Under the pieces are notes generated by a model. The model saw nothing but the letters and a program-made list of their open reading frames with translations, made no database searches and was not told the DNA's origin. A stretch of 64,000 nucleotides of DNA from Magnetococcales bacterium (GTDB taxonomy: Bacteria; Pseudomonadota; Magnetococcia; Magnetococcales; DC0425bin3), in assembly GCA_015231175.1 (NCBI GenBank), contig JADGBZ010000007.1:1846-65845 (forward strand). The letters are read 5' to 3'. Positions 43,681-51,261 of this stretch are shown in pieces; positions within the stretch are counted from its first letter, which is position 1, and each line of letters begins with the position of its first letter. A program made the position numbers and the translations under genes.

Positions 43681-44567
43681 GGGGCGGCGAGCCTTCCAGT
43701 AAGGTCAATGATGAATTGATGAGCCACGCGGCCACTGCGCGCACCACGGGTTTGCGCCCATGCCAGGGCCTCGGCGCATAACTGCTCCTGTGGTATGGCC
43801 AGGGCCAGATGGCGGGCGCTGTTTTCCACAATTCGCAGATAGGTCTCCTGGTCAAAGGGGTGAAACCCAAGCCAGAGCCCAAACCGATCAGAGAGGCTGA
43901 TCTGTTCTTCGGCGCTCTCCATGGGGTGATACTCTTCGCTTTCCGCAGCTGCGTCGCGTGCCATGAGGTGCCGCCGGTTGGAGGTGGCGTACAATAAAAT
44001 ATTGCCGGGCCGCCCGGCCACACCCCCCTCCAGAATCGATTTCAGGGCCTTGTAGGAACCATCCCGACGATCAAAAGAGAGGTCGTCGCAAAAAAGCAGA
44101 AAGGGCATGGTCAATATTTGCAAATGCTGGACAATCTCCGGCAGGGCAGACAGATCATCCTTGTGAACTTCCACAAGCTTGAGACGGGGAAAAAAGGGGG
44201 CGGCTACCGCTTTGACCAGCGAGGATTTGCCCGTGCCACGGCTACCCCACAACAGGGCATTGTTGGCGGGCAGGCCAGCGGCAAATTGGCGGGTATTGCG
44301 GAGAAGAATCTCCTTGGCCCGGTCGATGCCCAGCAAGGCGTCCAAAGGGAGGGGGTGAAAGGTCTCGACCGGAACCAACCCGCCACCACCCCAGGAGTTG
44401 GGGCGCCAACGAAAGACATGCCATCGCTGTAACATGGCGGGAGACGGTGGTGTGATGCTTCTTTCCCAATGCTCCAAAAGACGTTGCAGGCGTCCCAAAA
44501 GCGTTCGCGCACGACGCGGCGTCAACAGGGATTGGAGAAGGGAGGAACCTCCCCCTTCCATGAACAT
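43677..44567 (-). CDS. DUF815 family AAA-type ATPase
   Basis: ORF track 43677..44666. ATG 44567 overlaps the upstream stop (TGATG), and the 3' end overlaps nadK (ATGA). Walker A WGSRGTGKSS, then LFCDDLSF. Confidence 0.75.
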   Translation of the reverse strand: MFMEGGGSSLLQSLLTPRRARTLLGRLQRLLEHWERSITPPSPAMLQRWHVFRWRPNSWGGGGLVPVETFHPLPLDALLGIDRAKEILLRNTRQFAAGLPANNALLWGSRGTGKSSLVKAVAAPFFPRLKLVEVHKDDLSALPEIVQHLQILTMPFLLFCDDLSFDRRDGSYKALKSILEGGVAGRPGNILLYATSNRRHLMARDAAAESEEYHPMESAEEQISLSDRFGLWLGFHPFDQETYLRIVENSARHLALAIPQEQLCAEALAWAQTRGARSGRVAHQFIIDLTGRLAAP

Positions 44568-46585
44568 CAGGCGGATATCTCCTCTTCGATGGTGCGAATC
44601 AGGCGCACACCCATGGCGTCGCTCAGTGTCGTGACGGACACCCGGTTGCGGTGCGCCACACGGCAAGCTCCAACCTGGCTGCGCCAGCTACCCCCACGGC
44701 GTACCCGGCCATCGCCAAATGGGGCGCCATGGGGATTTTTTTTTGGGCTGCGGGCATAAAAATCTTCGCTGTACCAGTCGGCTGTCCACTCCCAAACGTT
44801 GCCGATCATGTCATACAGGCCCCAGGCATTGGGCAGCTTTTTGCCGACCGGCTGGGTGCCGCCACGGGAGTTTTTGGCAAACCAGCTGTACTGATCCAGC
44901 AGGTTCGGGTCATCGCCGAAGGGAAAAATGGCATCGGATCCAGCGCGGGCAGCGTACTCCCACTCCGCTTCGGTGGGAATGCGGACATGAACCCCGCCCT
45001 GACATAACCTGGAGAAACTTCGCACCAGTTCCTGAATGTCGTCCCATAGGATTCTTTCCACCGGACAATCCTTTTTTTCCGGTACATACAGACTTTTCGG
45101 GTCACCCATGATCTGTTTCCACTCTCCCCAGGTGACCGGATGCTGGCCCATCCAAAATCCATCCAGCTCGACCAGGTGTTGGGGGACTTCATCGGAGCGG
45201 CGACCGGGCGCACCCTTGGCGCTTCCCATCAGGAAAGATCCGCCCGGAATCCAGACAAACTTCATGCCTGTTACCTGCTCTTTCCAGAGATCACCTGGTT
45301 TGCGCTCTTCGATGGGTTTGGGGGGCAGATTGTTGGCTGGGGAGACGGAAGGGGATGGGGGCGCAGGGGCCAAACCGGCAGAGACCTTGGCAACCGGCGC
45401 CGAATGGGCCGCAGCAGGCTTGGTTGCAGCCCGATTATTGAGCGATGTCGCGGGGGAAAGACGCTTGGTGTCCGTTCTCTTGGTGTTGGTGCCAAAATCG
45501 TTCATGGAAGCGATAAAGCTGCGCCATGAGTTTTTCTTGATGTTGGATCCGAAGATGGTCCTGGGTGAGTCCCCTGTTGGGGGCGGCGATTTTCCGGCAG
45601 GTGCGGAAACGGTCGAGGGAGAGGAAACGCCGGCCTTGGCAACCGGTGCTGGAGTGGCCCGAACGGAATCTTTGGTGGCGCTGAAACAACCCAACAAAAG
45701 CGGACGCCAATCCGCGATGGATTGTGGACGTTCGGTCTCAATGACCATGAGCGCTTTGTCAATGGCGGCAAGGAATGCAGGGTGGTATTGGCCCTCTCCT
45801 GCTTCCGAGGCGGATTTCATGGGGTCGGGTTCGTTGCGCAGCCGTGCGTTGATGCGAATGGCAGCATCGGGCGGTTTGGCGCCGGTGATGGCCCGGTACA
45901 ACACACCACCCATGGCGTAGATGTCAGACCATGGCCCTTGGCGATTGCCGGTGGAGTCGTATTGCTCAAAGGGTGAGTAGCCCATGCTCAACAGGCTGGT
46001 CATCTGTTCGCCGCCATGGCCGGCAATGGCTTGTCGGGCGGAGCCGAAATCCAGAATGACCGGAGAGCCATTGGCGCGAACCAGAATGTTGGCTGGTTTG
46101 ATATCGCGATGGATGAAATCCTTGTTATGGAGCACTTCCAGACCATCCAGGAGCGGGGAAATCAGACGGACGATCTCACCTTCGGACAGAACCTTTTTGG
46201 CCTTCAGGACAGCGTCCAGACTCTCCCCCTCCTCGTACTCCATCACCATGTAGGCGGTGTTGCTGTCGCGGAAGAAACTCATCACCCGGACAATGTTCGG
46301 GTGTTTGAAGCGGGCCAGAATCTGGGCTTCCTTCAGAAAGCGATCCAAACCCCACTCGAAGGTTTTGGTGTCCGTAGGGGAGTTCGGCAGGACATTGCGC
46401 CCCTTTTCGCGAACGGCGAAACCTTTGGGGAGATACTCTTTGATGGCCACCTTCTGATCCAGGTTGGTATCCTTGGCCAGGTAGGTGATGCCGAAGCCAC
46501 CTTTCCCGAGAACCTTGACGATCTCGTACCACAACAGCGTGGAACCGGGGGGGAGGGAATCGACGAATTTTGTTGAACTCATCAT
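44567..46585 (-). CDS. Ser/Thr protein kinase fused to a formylglycine-generating-enzyme (FGE-sulfatase/SUMF1) domain
   Basis: 672 aa. Kinase motifs GKGGFG, AIKEY, HRDIKPANIL, DFG. Pro/Ala/Ser-rich linker. C-terminal FGE-type domain (FWMGQHPVTWGEW, EAEWEYAARAG, WGLYDMIGNVWEW, RGGSW). Confidence 0.85.
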   Translation of the reverse strand: MMSSTKFVDSLPPGSTLLWYEIVKVLGKGGFGITYLAKDTNLDQKVAIKEYLPKGFAVREKGRNVLPNSPTDTKTFEWGLDRFLKEAQILARFKHPNIVRVMSFFRDSNTAYMVMEYEEGESLDAVLKAKKVLSEGEIVRLISPLLDGLEVLHNKDFIHRDIKPANILVRANGSPVILDFGSARQAIAGHGGEQMTSLLSMGYSPFEQYDSTGNRQGPWSDIYAMGGVLYRAITGAKPPDAAIRINARLRNEPDPMKSASEAGEGQYHPAFLAAIDKALMVIETERPQSIADWRPLLLGCFSATKDSVRATPAPVAKAGVSSPSTVSAPAGKSPPPTGDSPRTIFGSNIKKNSWRSFIASMNDFGTNTKRTDTKRLSPATSLNNRAATKPAAAHSAPVAKVSAGLAPAPPSPSVSPANNLPPKPIEERKPGDLWKEQVTGMKFVWIPGGSFLMGSAKGAPGRRSDEVPQHLVELDGFWMGQHPVTWGEWKQIMGDPKSLYVPEKKDCPVERILWDDIQELVRSFSRLCQGGVHVRIPTEAEWEYAARAGSDAIFPFGDDPNLLDQYSWFAKNSRGGTQPVGKKLPNAWGLYDMIGNVWEWTADWYSEDFYARSPKKNPHGAPFGDGRVRRGGSWRSQVGACRVAHRNRVSVTTLSDAMGVRLIRTIEEEISA

Positions 46586-46705
46586 GTAGACCGACAGCTG
46601 CCTCCGTGATCAACCGTCTCGGGGACATCCCTTTCCCTGAATCGGCCAAAACCGCCTTGCCTCCCCACCCGCTTCCGTACCATTGTGGAGAATGATCGAA
46701 AAAGA

Positions 46706-47713
46706 TCAAGGGTGATACGGATCCGTCGAAAGCCGCATCCGCAAAGCGCCGGCCTGATCTTCGAGCGCCTCTTGGGGAATGGCGCGCTCTTCGCTGTCCA
46801 ACGAGTCCATCTTGGCGAACTCGAAATGGGCGCCCTCCCACTCTTTTTTTCCCTTGACGAGGAGGGGCTGATCCAGATCCAGCTCGGGCTCAACCCGGAC
46901 TTCGCCCAGGAGACCCTGAGGGTTTGCGTCTGTATCTTCGACGTACTCGACCCCTTCTTCCTGGTCAGGTTCGGATGTCGAAAAGGTGACGGCGCCGCGT
47001 ATCCAGTCGGAGAGGGTCCAGACGATTTGTTGTACAATGTCCGCCAGAAAAAAGAAACCCTGTTGGATCACATCCGTTACAAACCAGGCGATCTGTTTGG
47101 TGGCCTCCATCAGATGCCAGACCCCCTTTTTCAGCAGGGTCATCAGCTCGGAGAGGAGATACAGCCCCCATTCCGTGAGAAAATGCAGCCACTCCAGAAA
47201 AATGCCGACACCCTGTCGCAGCAGCAACGCTGCGCTGACCAGGGCAAAAGTGGTCCATTGCCAGGAAAAACGCAGGAAGTGAAAGGTCCACTCCAACGTG
47301 CGCCGTGTGGCAAAAAAACTCCATTGCAGAGTGCATCCGGTAGCGAAAATCAACCACTGGATAGTGCGAAAGAGGGTGATGAAACTCCACTGGATGGAGC
47401 GGGCGACCATGAAAAACAGGGTCGCCAGGATGCCGCCCGACGCCGACATGACAGTTGTGGCGCCACGCAGTGAAGTGCCCCCGACGCGGCGGATGGTCGC
47501 GGAAACCGGTGCGGACATGGACCTGGACGGGCCTCGCTCCGGAGCCCGGCGCAAACTGGGAAGCTTGGGCAGTCGAATGAAAATCCTCTCCGAGGTGGAT
47601 TTCATGACAGGCCGTGAGCGGTTGCGTTTTTCCACACGTTGATTGGACAACAAAGAAGGTTTGGCGGGCACCCGGCTCCTTTTGTTACCCAATGTTCTCT
47701 TCGCGGTGATCAT
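46706..47713 (-). CDS. hypothetical protein with ~13 tandem 11-residue Trp/Phe-rich repeats and an acidic C-terminus
   Basis: 335 aa. Strong SD (GAGAGGGA) 5 nt upstream of ATG 47713. GC3 in a 29-codon sample is about 62% in this frame against about 34% for the antisense ORF. Repeats such as RSIQWSFITLF / RTIQWLIFATG / CTLQWSFFATR / RTLEWTFHFLR. Confidence 0.6.
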   Translation of the reverse strand: MITAKRTLGNKRSRVPAKPSLLSNQRVEKRNRSRPVMKSTSERIFIRLPKLPSLRRAPERGPSRSMSAPVSATIRRVGGTSLRGATTVMSASGGILATLFFMVARSIQWSFITLFRTIQWLIFATGCTLQWSFFATRRTLEWTFHFLRFSWQWTTFALVSAALLLRQGVGIFLEWLHFLTEWGLYLLSELMTLLKKGVWHLMEATKQIAWFVTDVIQQGFFFLADIVQQIVWTLSDWIRGAVTFSTSEPDQEEGVEYVEDTDANPQGLLGEVRVEPELDLDQPLLVKGKKEWEGAHFEFAKMDSLDSEERAIPQEALEDQAGALRMRLSTDPYHP

Positions 47714-47996
47714 TTGGTTCCCTCTCTCGTGGCAGTGATCCCGACACCCTGACAGGATGCCCAGACCGACTGGGGCGTATCCTTATCCCCCGCAGCGACC
47801 AACGCAATTTCCAAGCCAAATAGACAAAAATCGTACCCGACACACCAGATTCCCCTCGCGACCATGGCCGGGGATGATACAAGATCCCTCGTTGTCGCGC
47901 CATCCCAATTGGTGAAATATTCCCCCTTGATTTTCTGCTCCAGGGGAATGAAGAAACGGTTGACCTGGACCCGGGTGAAGCACCAGAATCCCCGCG

Positions 47997-48449
47997 ATGG
48001 AGGCTTTTTTGTCGACTCATCCCCTTGACCTGGTTGCAGGGATCTCTTTCCGTCAGGCGCCAGGAGAGGAGGGGTTCAGGGGGGCGTGGGGTCCGCAACA
48101 GCGGCCTGCGGCGCACTCCTTTTCCGGAAACTGGGTTCTTTGTTCCCGGTGTGCGCACCGGATCACCCGGTTTGACATGGGGTCGCGGGAGCAAGGGCGC
48201 CATGAACACGTTTTTTTCAACCCCCAGGGGATGCTCTTCCTGATCCGCTGTTATGTGGCGGCCCCGGGGTGTTTGGTCATGGGTCATCCGACCAGGGAGT
48301 TTTCCTGGTTCAAGGCCTGCGCGTGGCAGTACGCCTTGTGTGGTGGTTGCCATCACCATCTGGGGTGGCATTACATGAATGGCTCCGATGTTGCATTTTT
48401 TGGCCTGATCGTCAACAGGTTGACGTATCCACCCTCCAATCCACCCTGA
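47997..48449 (+). CDS. CULT-domain protein (bacterial cereblon thalidomide-binding-domain homologue)
   Basis: 150 aa (start uncertain). Two CxxC pairs (CSRC, CGGC) and the aromatic-cage context HEHVFFNPQGMLF...EFSWFKACAWQYALCGGCHHHLGWHY, closely resembling the Magnetospirillum single-domain cereblon homologue. Confidence 0.8.
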   Translation: MEAFLSTHPLDLVAGISFRQAPGEEGFRGAWGPQQRPAAHSFSGNWVLCSRCAHRITRFDMGSREQGRHEHVFFNPQGMLFLIRCYVAAPGCLVMGHPTREFSWFKACAWQYALCGGCHHHLGWHYMNGSDVAFFGLIVNRLTYPPSNPP

Positions 48450-48479
48450 AATTTGCCCCGGTCAAGGATCATACACGCC

Positions 48480-48902
48480 ATGATGCCATCAGCCCCCCAC
48501 AGCCCCAGTCATCCACGTTTGGGACACCTGACCCCCCACGAAGCCCATGCCATGGTGCAAAATAAAGATGTTGTCTTCGTGGATATTCGTTCGGAGATCG
48601 AACACTTTTTCGTTGGTAATCCCCCTGGAATCATCAACATTCCCTGGCAAGACGCCCCGGATTTTGAACTCAATCCCAACTTTGTCGCCGAGGTTGGCCA
48701 GGTGGCCCGCAAAGATCAGACCCTGGTTCTCATCTGCCGCTCGGGGCATCGCTCCATCGATGCGGGCAACACCCTGCTCGAAAATGGTTTCACCTCGGTC
48801 TACAACGTTCTGGAGGGGTTTGAAGGGGACCGGGACGAACATCACCATCGCTCCAGCGTCAACGGTTGGCGGTTTCGGGGCCTGCCCTGGGTGCAGTGCT
48901 GA
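48480..48902 (+). CDS. rhodanese-domain sulfurtransferase
   Basis: ORF track 48453..48902. ATG 48480 has AAGGA upstream (140 aa). Active-site loop CRSGHRS. Confidence 0.8.
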   Translation: MMPSAPHSPSHPRLGHLTPHEAHAMVQNKDVVFVDIRSEIEHFFVGNPPGIINIPWQDAPDFELNPNFVAEVGQVARKDQTLVLICRSGHRSIDAGNTLLENGFTSVYNVLEGFEGDRDEHHHRSSVNGWRFRGLPWVQC

Positions 48903-49642
48903 TGCGCGATCATCCTGTCACAGGTTTCCTCTACGCCCAACGGGGTATCAGGATTTTGACCAAACCGGGTTTGCGACGTTTTGTGGCGGTGCCGCTGCTG
49001 GTCAATTGTGTGGTTTTTGGCCTGGGAACATGGTACATCTATCAGACGTATCGCAGCACCATCGGCTGGCTGCTGGACTGGATCCCTTCCTGGCTCCATT
49101 GGCTGGAGTGGGTCATCGCCCCCATGTTTGTGGTGTCGCTGGTGCTGGTTCTCTTTTTTGCCTTCACTCTGGTGGCCAATCTCCTGGGGGCTCCCTTCAA
49201 CGGTCTCTTGGCGGATCGTGTGGAACAACTGCTCTCCGAACAGGCAACAACAGTTCCGCAACATGGGGATGTGAAACGGATTTTGAAGGAGATGCTGCCG
49301 GCCATCCTGGATGAGTTGGGCAAGGTGCTGCATGTGGTCAAATGGATGATCCCCATCTTTTTCATCACCGCCATTCCCGGGATCAACCTGTTGGCACCCC
49401 TCATCTGGACCCTGTTTACCGCCTGGTTTTTGGCTGTGGGTTACCTTGACTTTCCCATGTCGAACAATCGGCTGAAGGGAAGGGAAATCCGGGAGAGGAT
49501 CCGGGAAAAACGTTTGACAGTCATGGGTTTTGGCGTGGGGGTTCTGTTCATGAGCAGCATTCCCGTGTTGAACCTCCTCGCCATGCCGGCTGCGGTGGCC
49601 GGGGCGACGGCGCTGTGGGTGGAGCATTTCAAGGAGGCCTGA
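48902..49642 (+). CDS. cysZ: CysZ-like (EI24/DUF540 family) sulfate transporter
   Basis: ORF track 48866..49642 trimmed to ATG 48902, which overlaps the rhodanese stop (TGATG). 246 aa. GFLYAQRGIRILTKPGLRRFVAVPLLVN and APFNGLLADRVE are typical of CysZ. Confidence 0.75.
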   Translation: MRDHPVTGFLYAQRGIRILTKPGLRRFVAVPLLVNCVVFGLGTWYIYQTYRSTIGWLLDWIPSWLHWLEWVIAPMFVVSLVLVLFFAFTLVANLLGAPFNGLLADRVEQLLSEQATTVPQHGDVKRILKEMLPAILDELGKVLHVVKWMIPIFFITAIPGINLLAPLIWTLFTAWFLAVGYLDFPMSNNRLKGREIRERIREKRLTVMGFGVGVLFMSSIPVLNLLAMPAAVAGATALWVEHFKEA

Positions 49643-49734: not shown

Positions 49735-51261
49735 ATGGTGACTCTGATCAATCCACCCGGAATCAAATCCCTTTCCAGTATTCAAATGCAGACCCCAAAT
49801 CTCCCCGTGGGGCTGGCCTATATTGCCGGAATTCTCAGGGAGAACAATGTTCCTTGCACGGTCATCGATGCGGTGGGGCTGGCGCTGGACAGCATCTCTC
49901 CATATCCGGATCGCAGCGATTTTCTTATCCAGGGATTGACCGAGGAGGAGATTGTCCGGCGGATCCCTATCGCGACGGACATTGTCGGTTTTGGATGCAT
50001 GTTCAGTACCTTATGGCCTGTCACACGCAGGCTTGTCGCCCGTGTCAGGCGGGCGTTTCCCCATGCCCTTCTGGTGTTGGGTGGAGAGCACGGCACCGCA
50101 GTGCCGGAGCACTCTCTGACGCACTCCGCGCTGGATGTCGTCGTTCTCGGCGAAGGCGAAAGAACGTTTCTGGCGTTGCTCAGGGCGCGTCGTCTGGGAA
50201 CTCCCTTTCACGATACCAAGGGTATTGCCTTCAAAGAGGGTGACCGGATCGTGTACACCGGTTTGTCTGAACGTCTGATCGAAATCGATGCCATCCCCTG
50301 GCCGGATTGGGAGTCCTTCCCGGTTGAGGCGTATATCGGGAAGAGTCAAAGCAGCGGCATGAACCTGGGGCGATTCATGCCGATCTTGGCCACCAGAGGT
50401 TGTCCTTATCGCTGTACATTCTGTTCCAGTCCAACCATGTGGACCACGCGCTACCTCACCCGGGATCCCGTGCGGGTCGTGGACGAAATGGTTCATTACC
50501 AGAAAAGATATGGCGCGGCCAATTTTGACTTCCAGGATTTGACAGCGATCGTCAAGCGTAGCTGGGTGATTGCCTTCTGCCAGGAGATCATCCGTCGCAG
50601 ACTTGAGATCACCTGGCAGCTTCCCATAGGCACACGCTCCGAGATCTTTGATGCGGAGGTCGTTGAGCTGATCTACCGCTCCGGGTGCCGATCCCTGAGT
50701 TTTGCACCGGAGAGCGGGGCGGAAGAGATTCGGCGATCTGTTGGCAAAAAGCTTGATCTGGATCGATTTCTCAAGGCGGTCGACATTGTCGTGGCGCGGG
50801 GAATCGCCTTGTCCTGCTTTATTGTCATCGGGTTTCCCAACGACAACAAGGAAACCCTGCGGGCCTCCCTGCGTCTGATACGCAAGCTTGCCATCATGGG
50901 GGTCCACGACGTTGCCGTTACCAAATTCGTTCCCTACCCCGGTTCGGCATTGTTTCTTGAACTCCAGCAATCAGGCGTTCTCAAACTTGACGACGAATTT
51001 TTTGTATCCCCCATGGATTTTTATACCAAAAAGGGGGCATCCTTCTGTCGGGAAGTCCCGCAAAGAGATTTGTATGCATGGATGATTTGGATGTTCCTTA
51101 ATTTCTACATCATCTCCTTCACACGCCGTCCATGGCGGGTCATATCCATTTTGTGGGAGGCGGTCACCACTGGCCGGGAAAGAGCCCGTTTTGCCAAATG
51201 GTTTGTCGACATGTTTTTGCGCAGGCGCGGATGGCGGCGGCAATTGCGCAAGGCTTCCTGA
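49735..51261 (+). CDS. B12-binding-domain radical SAM protein (class B)
   Basis: 508 aa. N-terminal cobalamin-binding-type domain (VGFGCMFS...LVLGGEH). Radical SAM cluster motif CPYRCTFC. Confidence 0.8.
   Translation: MVTLINPPGIKSLSSIQMQTPNLPVGLAYIAGILRENNVPCTVIDAVGLALDSISPYPDRSDFLIQGLTEEEIVRRIPIATDIVGFGCMFSTLWPVTRRLVARVRRAFPHALLVLGGEHGTAVPEHSLTHSALDVVVLGEGERTFLALLRARRLGTPFHDTKGIAFKEGDRIVYTGLSERLIEIDAIPWPDWESFPVEAYIGKSQSSGMNLGRFMPILATRGCPYRCTFCSSPTMWTTRYLTRDPVRVVDEMVHYQKRYGAANFDFQDLTAIVKRSWVIAFCQEIIRRRLEITWQLPIGTRSEIFDAEVVELIYRSGCRSLSFAPESGAEEIRRSVGKKLDLDRFLKAVDIVVARGIALSCFIVIGFPNDNKETLRASLRLIRKLAIMGVHDVAVTKFVPYPGSALFLELQQSGVLKLDDEFFVSPMDFYTKKGASFCREVPQRDLYAWMIWMFLNFYIISFTRRPWRVISILWEAVTTGRERARFAKWFVDMFLRRRGWRRQLRKAS

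Follow-up and report, generated by a model that had tools for sequence, protein, structure and literature searches.

In a stretch of 64,000 nucleotides from a Magnetococcales bacterium (contig JADGBZ010000007.1 of assembly GCA_015231175.1; hereafter the window), a gene for a single-domain, cereblon-type CULT protein is followed by genes for a rhodanese and for the sulfate permease CysZ. The three genes form a compact unit which, judged from its layout, is probably co-transcribed, and which is found in the same order and orientation in five distinct lineages of one Magnetococcales subclade. We slightly favour a reading that goes as far as co-transcription of the three genes and stops short of a demonstrated biochemical coupling of the CULT protein to the sulfur module. 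Laboratories worldwide use bacterial CULT proteins in place of cereblon for crystallography, and the family was reportedly defined in 2015. The locus described here is an additional member of this already known family in a clade-specific, probably co-transcribed setting. A Magnetococcales clade in which a CULT gene heads a rhodanese-CysZ unit offers one concrete handle on CULT function: if the linkage is functional, a pocket that binds imides or uracil is tied to sulfur handling, and if it is not, the locus is another family member. We therefore present the locus as a modest, testable lead on CULT function rather than as a discovery.

The CULT protein

The CULT gene (nt 47997-48449, + strand) encodes a protein of 150 amino acids, which we characterized by a phmmer search, an AlphaFold2 (AF2) model and a comparison of the proportions of nonsynonymous and synonymous differences (pN/pS). 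In the phmmer search against the Protein Data Bank (PDB), residues 47-147 match MsCI4, the Magnetospirillum 'cereblon isoform 4' (4V2Y; more than 60 entries), with an E-value of 1.2e-27, and human, mouse and chicken cereblon are matched at about 1e-7 to 1e-5 (human CRBN from 1.6e-7). The domain itself spans residues ~46-147 (nt ~48132-48437). The aromatic cage of the family is made of three Trp and a Tyr or Phe, which in MsCI4 are W79, W85, W99 and Y101 (PMC4287342); by alignment these correspond to W104 (SWF), W110 (AWQ), and W124 and Y126 (GWHY) of the window protein. The zinc cysteines C49/C52 and C115/C118 align in the same way with C24/C27 and C90/C93 of MsCI4. Across 16 CULT homologues 22 alignment columns are invariant, including C115, C118 and the three cage tryptophans W104, W110 and W124.

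The AF2 model, which was built on the same number of homologues (16), is confident for residues 46-147 (mostly with a predicted local distance difference test score, pLDDT, of at least 70), where it shows eight strands, while residues 1-42 are of low confidence and predicted to be disordered. When the model was compared with the PDB by Foldseek, the top 40 and more matches were all MsCI4, with target-normalised template modelling (TM) scores of 0.82-0.89, followed by CRBN; the best MsCI4 matches have target-normalised TM scores of 0.86-0.88 and an E-value of 6e-12. Because the E-value to MsCI4, the zinc and cage residues and the predicted fold all agree, the CULT assignment is secure. An earlier, sequence-only reading of this DNA had described a single-domain CULT protein with two CxxC pairs and the cage tryptophans, close to the Magnetospirillum protein that serves as a surrogate for cereblon. 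The phmmer alignment bears this description out, the E-value and TM scores given above confirm the closeness, and the assignment held when profile and structure were compared with the thalidomide-binding domain of cereblon.

In Pfam and NCBIfam no model reaches threshold for the protein, and the sole Pfam match is a sub-threshold one to Yippee-Mis18, a known sister family of CULT; NCBI already names relatives of the protein "cereblon family protein". The missing model and the predicted disorder of the N-terminal 42 residues are what one could bring forward for regarding the open reading frame (ORF) as a decaying remnant or an annotation artefact. Against this stand the match to MsCI4 (E 1e-27), in which no zinc or cage residue is lost, the confident fold, the 22 invariant columns in 16 homologues and a pN far below pS in all pairs of orthologues. 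A remnant is thus extremely improbable, and we consider this explanation to be effectively refuted. As for the exact start of the gene, an alternative TTG at 48009, which is the start called by NCBI, gives a protein of 146 amino acids and is preceded 5 nt upstream by GGAGG (nt 47999-48003). Judged from these sequence features, the TTG at 48009 rather than the ATG at 47997 may be the true start.

MsCI4 (MGR_0879 of M. gryphiswaldense) and the window protein have much in common: a single CULT domain of ~100 amino acids with ~45% identity, the same zinc cysteines and the same W/W/W/Y cage. They differ in that the window protein carries a low-confidence N-terminal extension of ~45 amino acids, and Magnetococcales are a different order. 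Eukaryotic cereblon belongs to the same domain family and has the same cage, but the window protein lacks a LON-like domain, a DDB1-binding region and a ubiquitin system; it cannot serve as the substrate receptor of an E3. Both uridine and thalidomide bind to MsCI4; uracil and uridine are the only natural CULT binders found, and the physiological ligand was left open in the founding CULT paper (Lupas et al., PMC4287342), which contains no operon or neighbourhood analysis. In eukaryotes, rings of the imide type occur as C-terminal cyclic imides of proteins (PMC13001092). By analogy with MsCI4, the window protein most probably works on its own and binds a small ring, namely a cyclic imide, a lactam or uracil.

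In addition to the zinc cysteines, C85 (nt 48249-48251) and C92 (nt 48270-48272) are also invariant in the 16 homologues. C92 is replaced by Leu in MsCI4. From the alignment, C85 and C92 are candidates for an additional site, redox or metal-binding, that is specific to this branch of the family.

The rhodanese-CysZ pair and the conservation of the block

The second gene (nt 48480-48902, + strand) encodes a single-domain rhodanese of 140 amino acids, recognized by Pfam PF00581 (E 5e-13; 49.7 bits against a cut-off of 22.2). In an alignment of 24 orthologues the catalytic loop CRSGHRS (nt 48735-48755) is invariant and the N-terminus MMPSAPHSP (M-[ML]-P-S-A-P-H-S-P) is kept; since this N-terminus is common to all 24, the start is the ATG at 48480 and not the TTG at 48453. 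The CULT stop and this ATG are 30 nt apart, and this spacer holds a Shine-Dalgarno (SD) sequence, AAGGA (nt 48464-48468, + strand), which ends 11 nt before the ATG and is the same in the window and in the loci L081, L083 and L086. The closest solved structure is that of Ab-RLD, a thiosulfate sulfurtransferase of A. baumannii (8W14; E 2.4e-31), which has thiosulfate:cyanide and thiosulfate:glutathione activity and a CRSGNR loop (PMC10925157). Both proteins have the loop CRSG(N/H)R and a C-terminal region of the form EGFEGD...NGWR...LPW. Unlike the encapsulin-associated Ab-RLD, the window rhodanese and its listed orthologues have no encapsulin, cysteine desulfurase or serine acetyltransferase gene seen beside them; the last two residues of the window protein are an invariant Gln-Cys, and its partners are CULT and CysZ. 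By sequence the rhodanese is of the thiosulfate-sulfurtransferase type, and sulfur transfer via a persulfide is proposed here only by analogy with Ab-RLD (PMC10925157).

The C-terminus of the rhodanese (nt 48885-48902) reads ...LPW(V/M)QC in 24 of 24 orthologues, which places a second, C-terminal Cys directly after a Gln. This Cys could act as a persulfide relay or, more speculatively, be part of a latent C-terminal glutarimide. The rhodanese is widespread and well conserved in Magnetococcales: its clusters there number more than 100, at 60-93% identity.

The third gene (nt 48902-49642, + strand) encodes CysZ, a sulfate permease of 246 amino acids. It scores 232.7 bits with the NCBIfam equivalog NF003433 (cut-off 140), matches Pfam EI24 with an E-value of 1.5e-47, and matches the structures 3tx3 and 6d9z over its full length at E ~1e-46. 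It thus resembles E. coli CysZ (3TX3, 6D79, 6D9Z), from which it differs in that its translation appears to be coupled to that of the rhodanese. The sulfate-binding motif of CysZ, GLR, has been described near the N-terminus, and the sulfate flux mediated by CysZ is inhibited by sulfite (PMC5967866). Seen by inspection only, a PGLRRF near the N-terminus of the window CysZ contains GLR and may correspond to this motif. In the TGATG at 48900-48904 the CysZ ATG at 48902 and the rhodanese stop share one base. Both this overlap and the preference for the rhodanese ATG at 48480 had been put forward by the sequence-only reading; the overlap is real and also occurs in L081 and L083, and the start is backed by the N-termini of the orthologues and by AAGGA. 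As far as can be judged from titles and abstracts, no description of a CysZ-rhodanese pairing was found in the literature searched, where four papers name both proteins and none deals with their linkage.

The five lineages with the CULT-rhodanese-CysZ order are represented by the window together with L084 (GCA_015232135.1, identical to the window over 5.4 kb), by Magnetococcus sp. DMHC-1 (L081/L082), by GCA_015232755.1 (L083), by GCA_015229045.1 (L086) and by DC0425bin3 (L001/L087). We know of no cultured organism with this arrangement. Between these lineages the identity of the whole CULT protein to that of the window goes from 66-71% down to 49%, and synonymous sites are saturated (synonymous divergence, dS, above 1). 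The pN/pS values are about 0.1-0.3 for CULT, 0.03-0.08 for the rhodanese and 0.13-0.4 for CysZ; as pN is far below pS for all three, all are maintained genes under purifying selection. The CULT-rhodanese spacer measures 30 nt in the window and 29, 41 and 38 nt in other lineages, and in L087 a 4-nt overlap (ATGA) places the CULT stop on the rhodanese start. The TGATG overlap between rhodanese and CysZ is found in three lineages (window, L081 and L083), and L087 has a 2-nt gap.

In L086 (5420-5484) the TGATG overlap is broken by 62 inserted nucleotides, which separate the CysZ start from the stop of the rhodanese and have a directly duplicated GCTGATGCGCGAC on their flanks. A different layout is seen in L083 (335-2821), on a contig of 3.7 kb: CULT is immediately preceded, in the same orientation, by the hypothetical gene of the upstream pair described below and by a truncated kinase gene (287 aa, without the FGE domain), and the first ~43 codons of the CULT gene are missing. 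This arrangement is either a real inversion with its breakpoint at the 5' end of CULT or a misassembly.

Downstream of CysZ the flanks differ between lineages: the window has a B12-binding radical SAM gene, DMHC-1 a gene of the metallo-beta-lactamase fold, L087 a histidine kinase gene and L086 an ORF of 180 aa. The radical SAM gene (nt 49735-51261, + strand; Pfam B12-binding and Radical_SAM) is therefore a neighbour outside the conserved unit. It was considered as a member of the unit and rejected, for it comes after CysZ in the window and L084 alone and not in L081, L086 or L087; no NCBIfam equivalog reaches its cut-off for this protein. The compact layout of CULT, rhodanese and CysZ that the sequence-only reading had described stands; the radical SAM gene, which it had noted after a 92-nt gap, falls outside the unit.

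A wider question is how the block came about. We sampled rhodanese contexts in 12 Magnetococcales lineages, seven of which have an orthologous rhodanese without CULT or CysZ beside it: M. marinus MC-1 (L085), Magnetofaba australis (L094), MYC-9 (L093), L088, L089, L091 and L092. Upstream of CULT in the window lies a divergent gene pair (nt 44567-47713, - strand), which consists of a hypothetical protein of 335 amino acids (46706-47713) and a 672-aa Ser/Thr kinase fused to an FGE-sulfatase domain (44567-46585). The hypothetical protein is repeat-rich and membrane-like, has no Pfam match and is usually encoded between the kinase and the rhodanese. The kinase-FGE gene lies upstream of the rhodanese in genomes with the block and also in five of the seven lineages without it (L088, L089 and L091-L093), and it is divergent from the rhodanese in all sampled Magnetococcales lineages except MC-1 and Magnetofaba. 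Since five of the seven lineages without the block keep the kinase gene, this gene pair is the ancestral context of the rhodanese, and the association of kinase and rhodanese predates the CULT linkage and reaches further.

In neighbour-joining (NJ) trees the CULT domains of the block, out of 87 CULT domains, group together to the exclusion of all others, and the CysZs of the block form a subclade in a near-monophyletic group of Magnetococcales CysZs. The monophyly of the block CULT genes points to a single origin, counted here as one evolutionary event; an independent acquisition of CULT beside the rhodanese, which would have spoken strongly for a coupling, was rejected on this ground. In GCA_015232395.1, a metagenome-assembled genome without the block, the rhodanese stands alone (L092) and CysZ is found at a separate locus (L095). 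A scan of metagenomes with the rhodanese alignment gave just two loci, neither with CULT or CysZ. The simplest history would be that the rhodanese is an old resident of the locus, next to the divergent kinase pair, that in a single ancestor the CULT gene was inserted between the divergent gene and the rhodanese, and that the order's own CysZ came to sit immediately downstream of the rhodanese. Because the block arose once, in one small magnetotactic group, it is a weak clue to the function of the CULT protein.

Transcription of the unit

The three genes lie on the same strand with a spacer of 30 nt and an overlap of 1 nt, terminator-like sites between them show no excess over shuffled sequences, and their order is kept in the five lineages. 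On these features of layout, the compact three-gene unit is probably co-transcribed. A consensus scan found a promoter-like site, TTGACC-18 nt-CAGAAT (nt 47960-47989, + strand), in front of the CULT gene, and both hexamers and their spacing are kept in L081 and L086 despite the saturation of synonymous coding sites. As the site ends 8 nt before the ATG at 47997, the mRNA would be leaderless, or translation would start at the TTG 48009 with its GGAGG. Rfam gave no matches in the whole window, and thus no riboswitch is seen in the 283-nt upstream region. The region upstream of CULT was also considered as a homologue of the regions upstream of the rhodanese in lineages without the block; no alignable similarity was found, and this origin of the promoter was rejected.

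A different possibility is that the CULT gene has its own promoter, that a promoter for rhodanese and CysZ lies within or after the CULT gene, and that the adjacency has no regulatory meaning. The rhodanese would have had its own promoter before CULT arrived, as in the genomes without the block, it has its own conserved SD, and L083 shows that rearrangement is tolerated right up to the CULT start. These points have to be weighed against the short spacer (29-41 nt, or an overlap), the lack of a terminator-like hairpin between the genes and the consensus scan, which found no + strand promoter-like site inside the CULT gene. We consider separate transcription to be possible but unlikely.

The preferred reading, co-transcription, could work as follows. 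Transcription would run from TTGACC-18-CAGAAT through all three genes, and rhodanese and CysZ would be translationally coupled. The two may form a sulfur-assimilation module in which the sulfurtransferase makes sulfite and sulfite inhibits the flux through CysZ. The CULT gene would be co-regulated with this module, and its product, as MsCI4, would bind a five- or six-membered ring of the imide, lactam or uracil type, either free or at the C-terminus of a protein.

Several points weigh against this reading. The promoter-like site matches a consensus and no more, and such sites are as frequent in the region as in shuffled sequence. An internal promoter for rhodanese and CysZ may lie inside the CULT gene. 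Five lineages of one clade amount to one event, so that retention is perhaps mere regional synteny, and the kinase pair is conserved even more widely than the block. The NJ trees of CULT and CysZ, on which the single origin is read, carry no support values. Finally, the comparison with other CULT loci given below is of the best 80 among more than 581 loci, which were obtained by scanning 185,579 GTDB species genomes.

A possible direct coupling and the CULT family at large

Another question that is raised by the block is whether the CULT protein takes part in the chemistry of its neighbours. Its pocket might bind a sulfur-related molecule of the uracil or imide type, or a state of the rhodanese, and thereby sense, deliver or regulate in the rhodanese/CysZ pathway; a functional link of this kind, with thiolated uracil or imide-type metabolites as examples, was the hypothesis of the sequence-only reading. 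Within Magnetococcales there are observations that speak for such a coupling: none of the 12 lineages has just one of CULT and CysZ next to the rhodanese (5 have both, 7 neither), the block has outlasted the turnover of its downstream flanks and the saturation of dS, in L087 the end of CULT runs into the start of the rhodanese gene, and the unit was seemingly assembled by two separate gene movements. Yet the block has a single origin, and most Magnetococcales run an orthologous rhodanese without CULT.

The other CULT loci also argue against it. The best 80 come mostly from Desulfobacterota, with others from Spirochaetota, Rhodospirillales, Nitrospirota and further groups. When ~12 kb of each was searched by tblastn, with a subfamily hidden Markov model (HMM) and by five rounds of jackhmmer, a rhodanese or CysZ within ~6 kb was found in none of the 79 other loci; the one locus with either nearby is L001, from the Magnetococcales clade of the block. 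The immediate neighbours elsewhere are unrelated. We took a census of them with Pfam on the ORFs that flank CULT most closely on either side at 73-75 loci, as given by crude, greedy longest-ORF calls and counted for the top 25 families, and found no common CULT partner beyond lineage-specific synteny. The most frequent neighbours are HemD and a tetrapyrrole methylase (TP_methylase; HemD/CobA) at 11 loci, followed by an asparagine (Asn) synthase at four loci of a single group; ABC transporters are also among this diverse set. All 11 HemD loci are from related Desulfobulbales-type genomes, and therefore this pairing is synteny by descent. As no partner recurs beyond synteny of this kind, genomic context will not easily reveal the function. 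No recognisable extra domain was seen in 10 longer members of the family (194-236 aa), so that a fusion of CULT to a known domain gives no support to a coupling either. A second Magnetococcales CULT (L078, WMHbin3) does not belong to the block clade and has other neighbours.

Taken on these data, direct biochemical coupling of CULT to the sulfur module is on balance improbable, and we regard it as a doubtful explanation of the block. The neighbourhood analysis that the sequence-only reading had called for thus gave a divided answer, in that the block recurs in five Magnetococcales lineages but in none of the 79 other CULT loci. The same holds for its use of the sulfur-gene linkage as a functional clue: the neighbourhood is conserved, but in one clade and through one event, which leaves the clue weakly supported.

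Under a stronger version of the coupling, the block would for the first time place a bacterial CULT protein in a physiological context, with the pocket working together with rhodanese and CysZ through a thio-substituted metabolite of the uracil or imide type, or through a glutarimide at the C-terminus of the rhodanese; we hold this to be decidedly unlikely. Cyclisation of Gln is the chemistry that generates the C-terminal cyclic-imide degrons of cereblon in eukaryotes. In principle, and as pure inference, the ...Val-Gln-Cys end of the rhodanese could cyclise at Gln, release the terminal Cys and offer a glutarimide to the CULT pocket. The Gln-Cys terminus is invariant also in genomes without a CULT gene.

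The CULT family is large, with 2,877 representatives of clusters up to an E-value of 1e-3 and 532 up to 1e-30. The top profile match, P0256, is a eukaryotic cereblon-like protein of 1,737 amino acids with ~22 CULT 'repeats'; these are perfectly identical copies of a C-terminal segment, and we set the entry aside as most likely an artefact of assembly or gene model. PADLOC gave no defence-system match for CULT, the rhodanese, CysZ, the radical SAM protein or the 335-aa ORF, and the kinase matches only a generic kinase domain. At L078 (5815-7907) the CULT gene comes after a BatD-like gene and overlaps the start of a 597-aa ORF which has a CPKSCRHC motif and no Pfam match.

Among the 95 loci, the only two B12-binding radical SAM genes detected both adjoin CULT, at L038 (6526-8220, + strand) and L073 (6317-8107, - strand), both in Desulfobacterales-type genomes. 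One lies 100 nt downstream on the same strand, and the other is convergent at a distance of 23 nt. Their products are just 23-28% identical to that of the window, where the radical SAM gene is two genes downstream of CULT, and a rough estimate of chance is ~0.04; the adjacency in these two loci may be a coincidence. In L034, L035, L044 and L058 a glutamine-hydrolysing Asn synthase is encoded immediately upstream of CULT on the opposite strand. These loci have flanking genes in common, and the adjacency is probably synteny by descent. This neighbour deserves mention as the chemistry of Asn and Gln is a source of cyclic imides.

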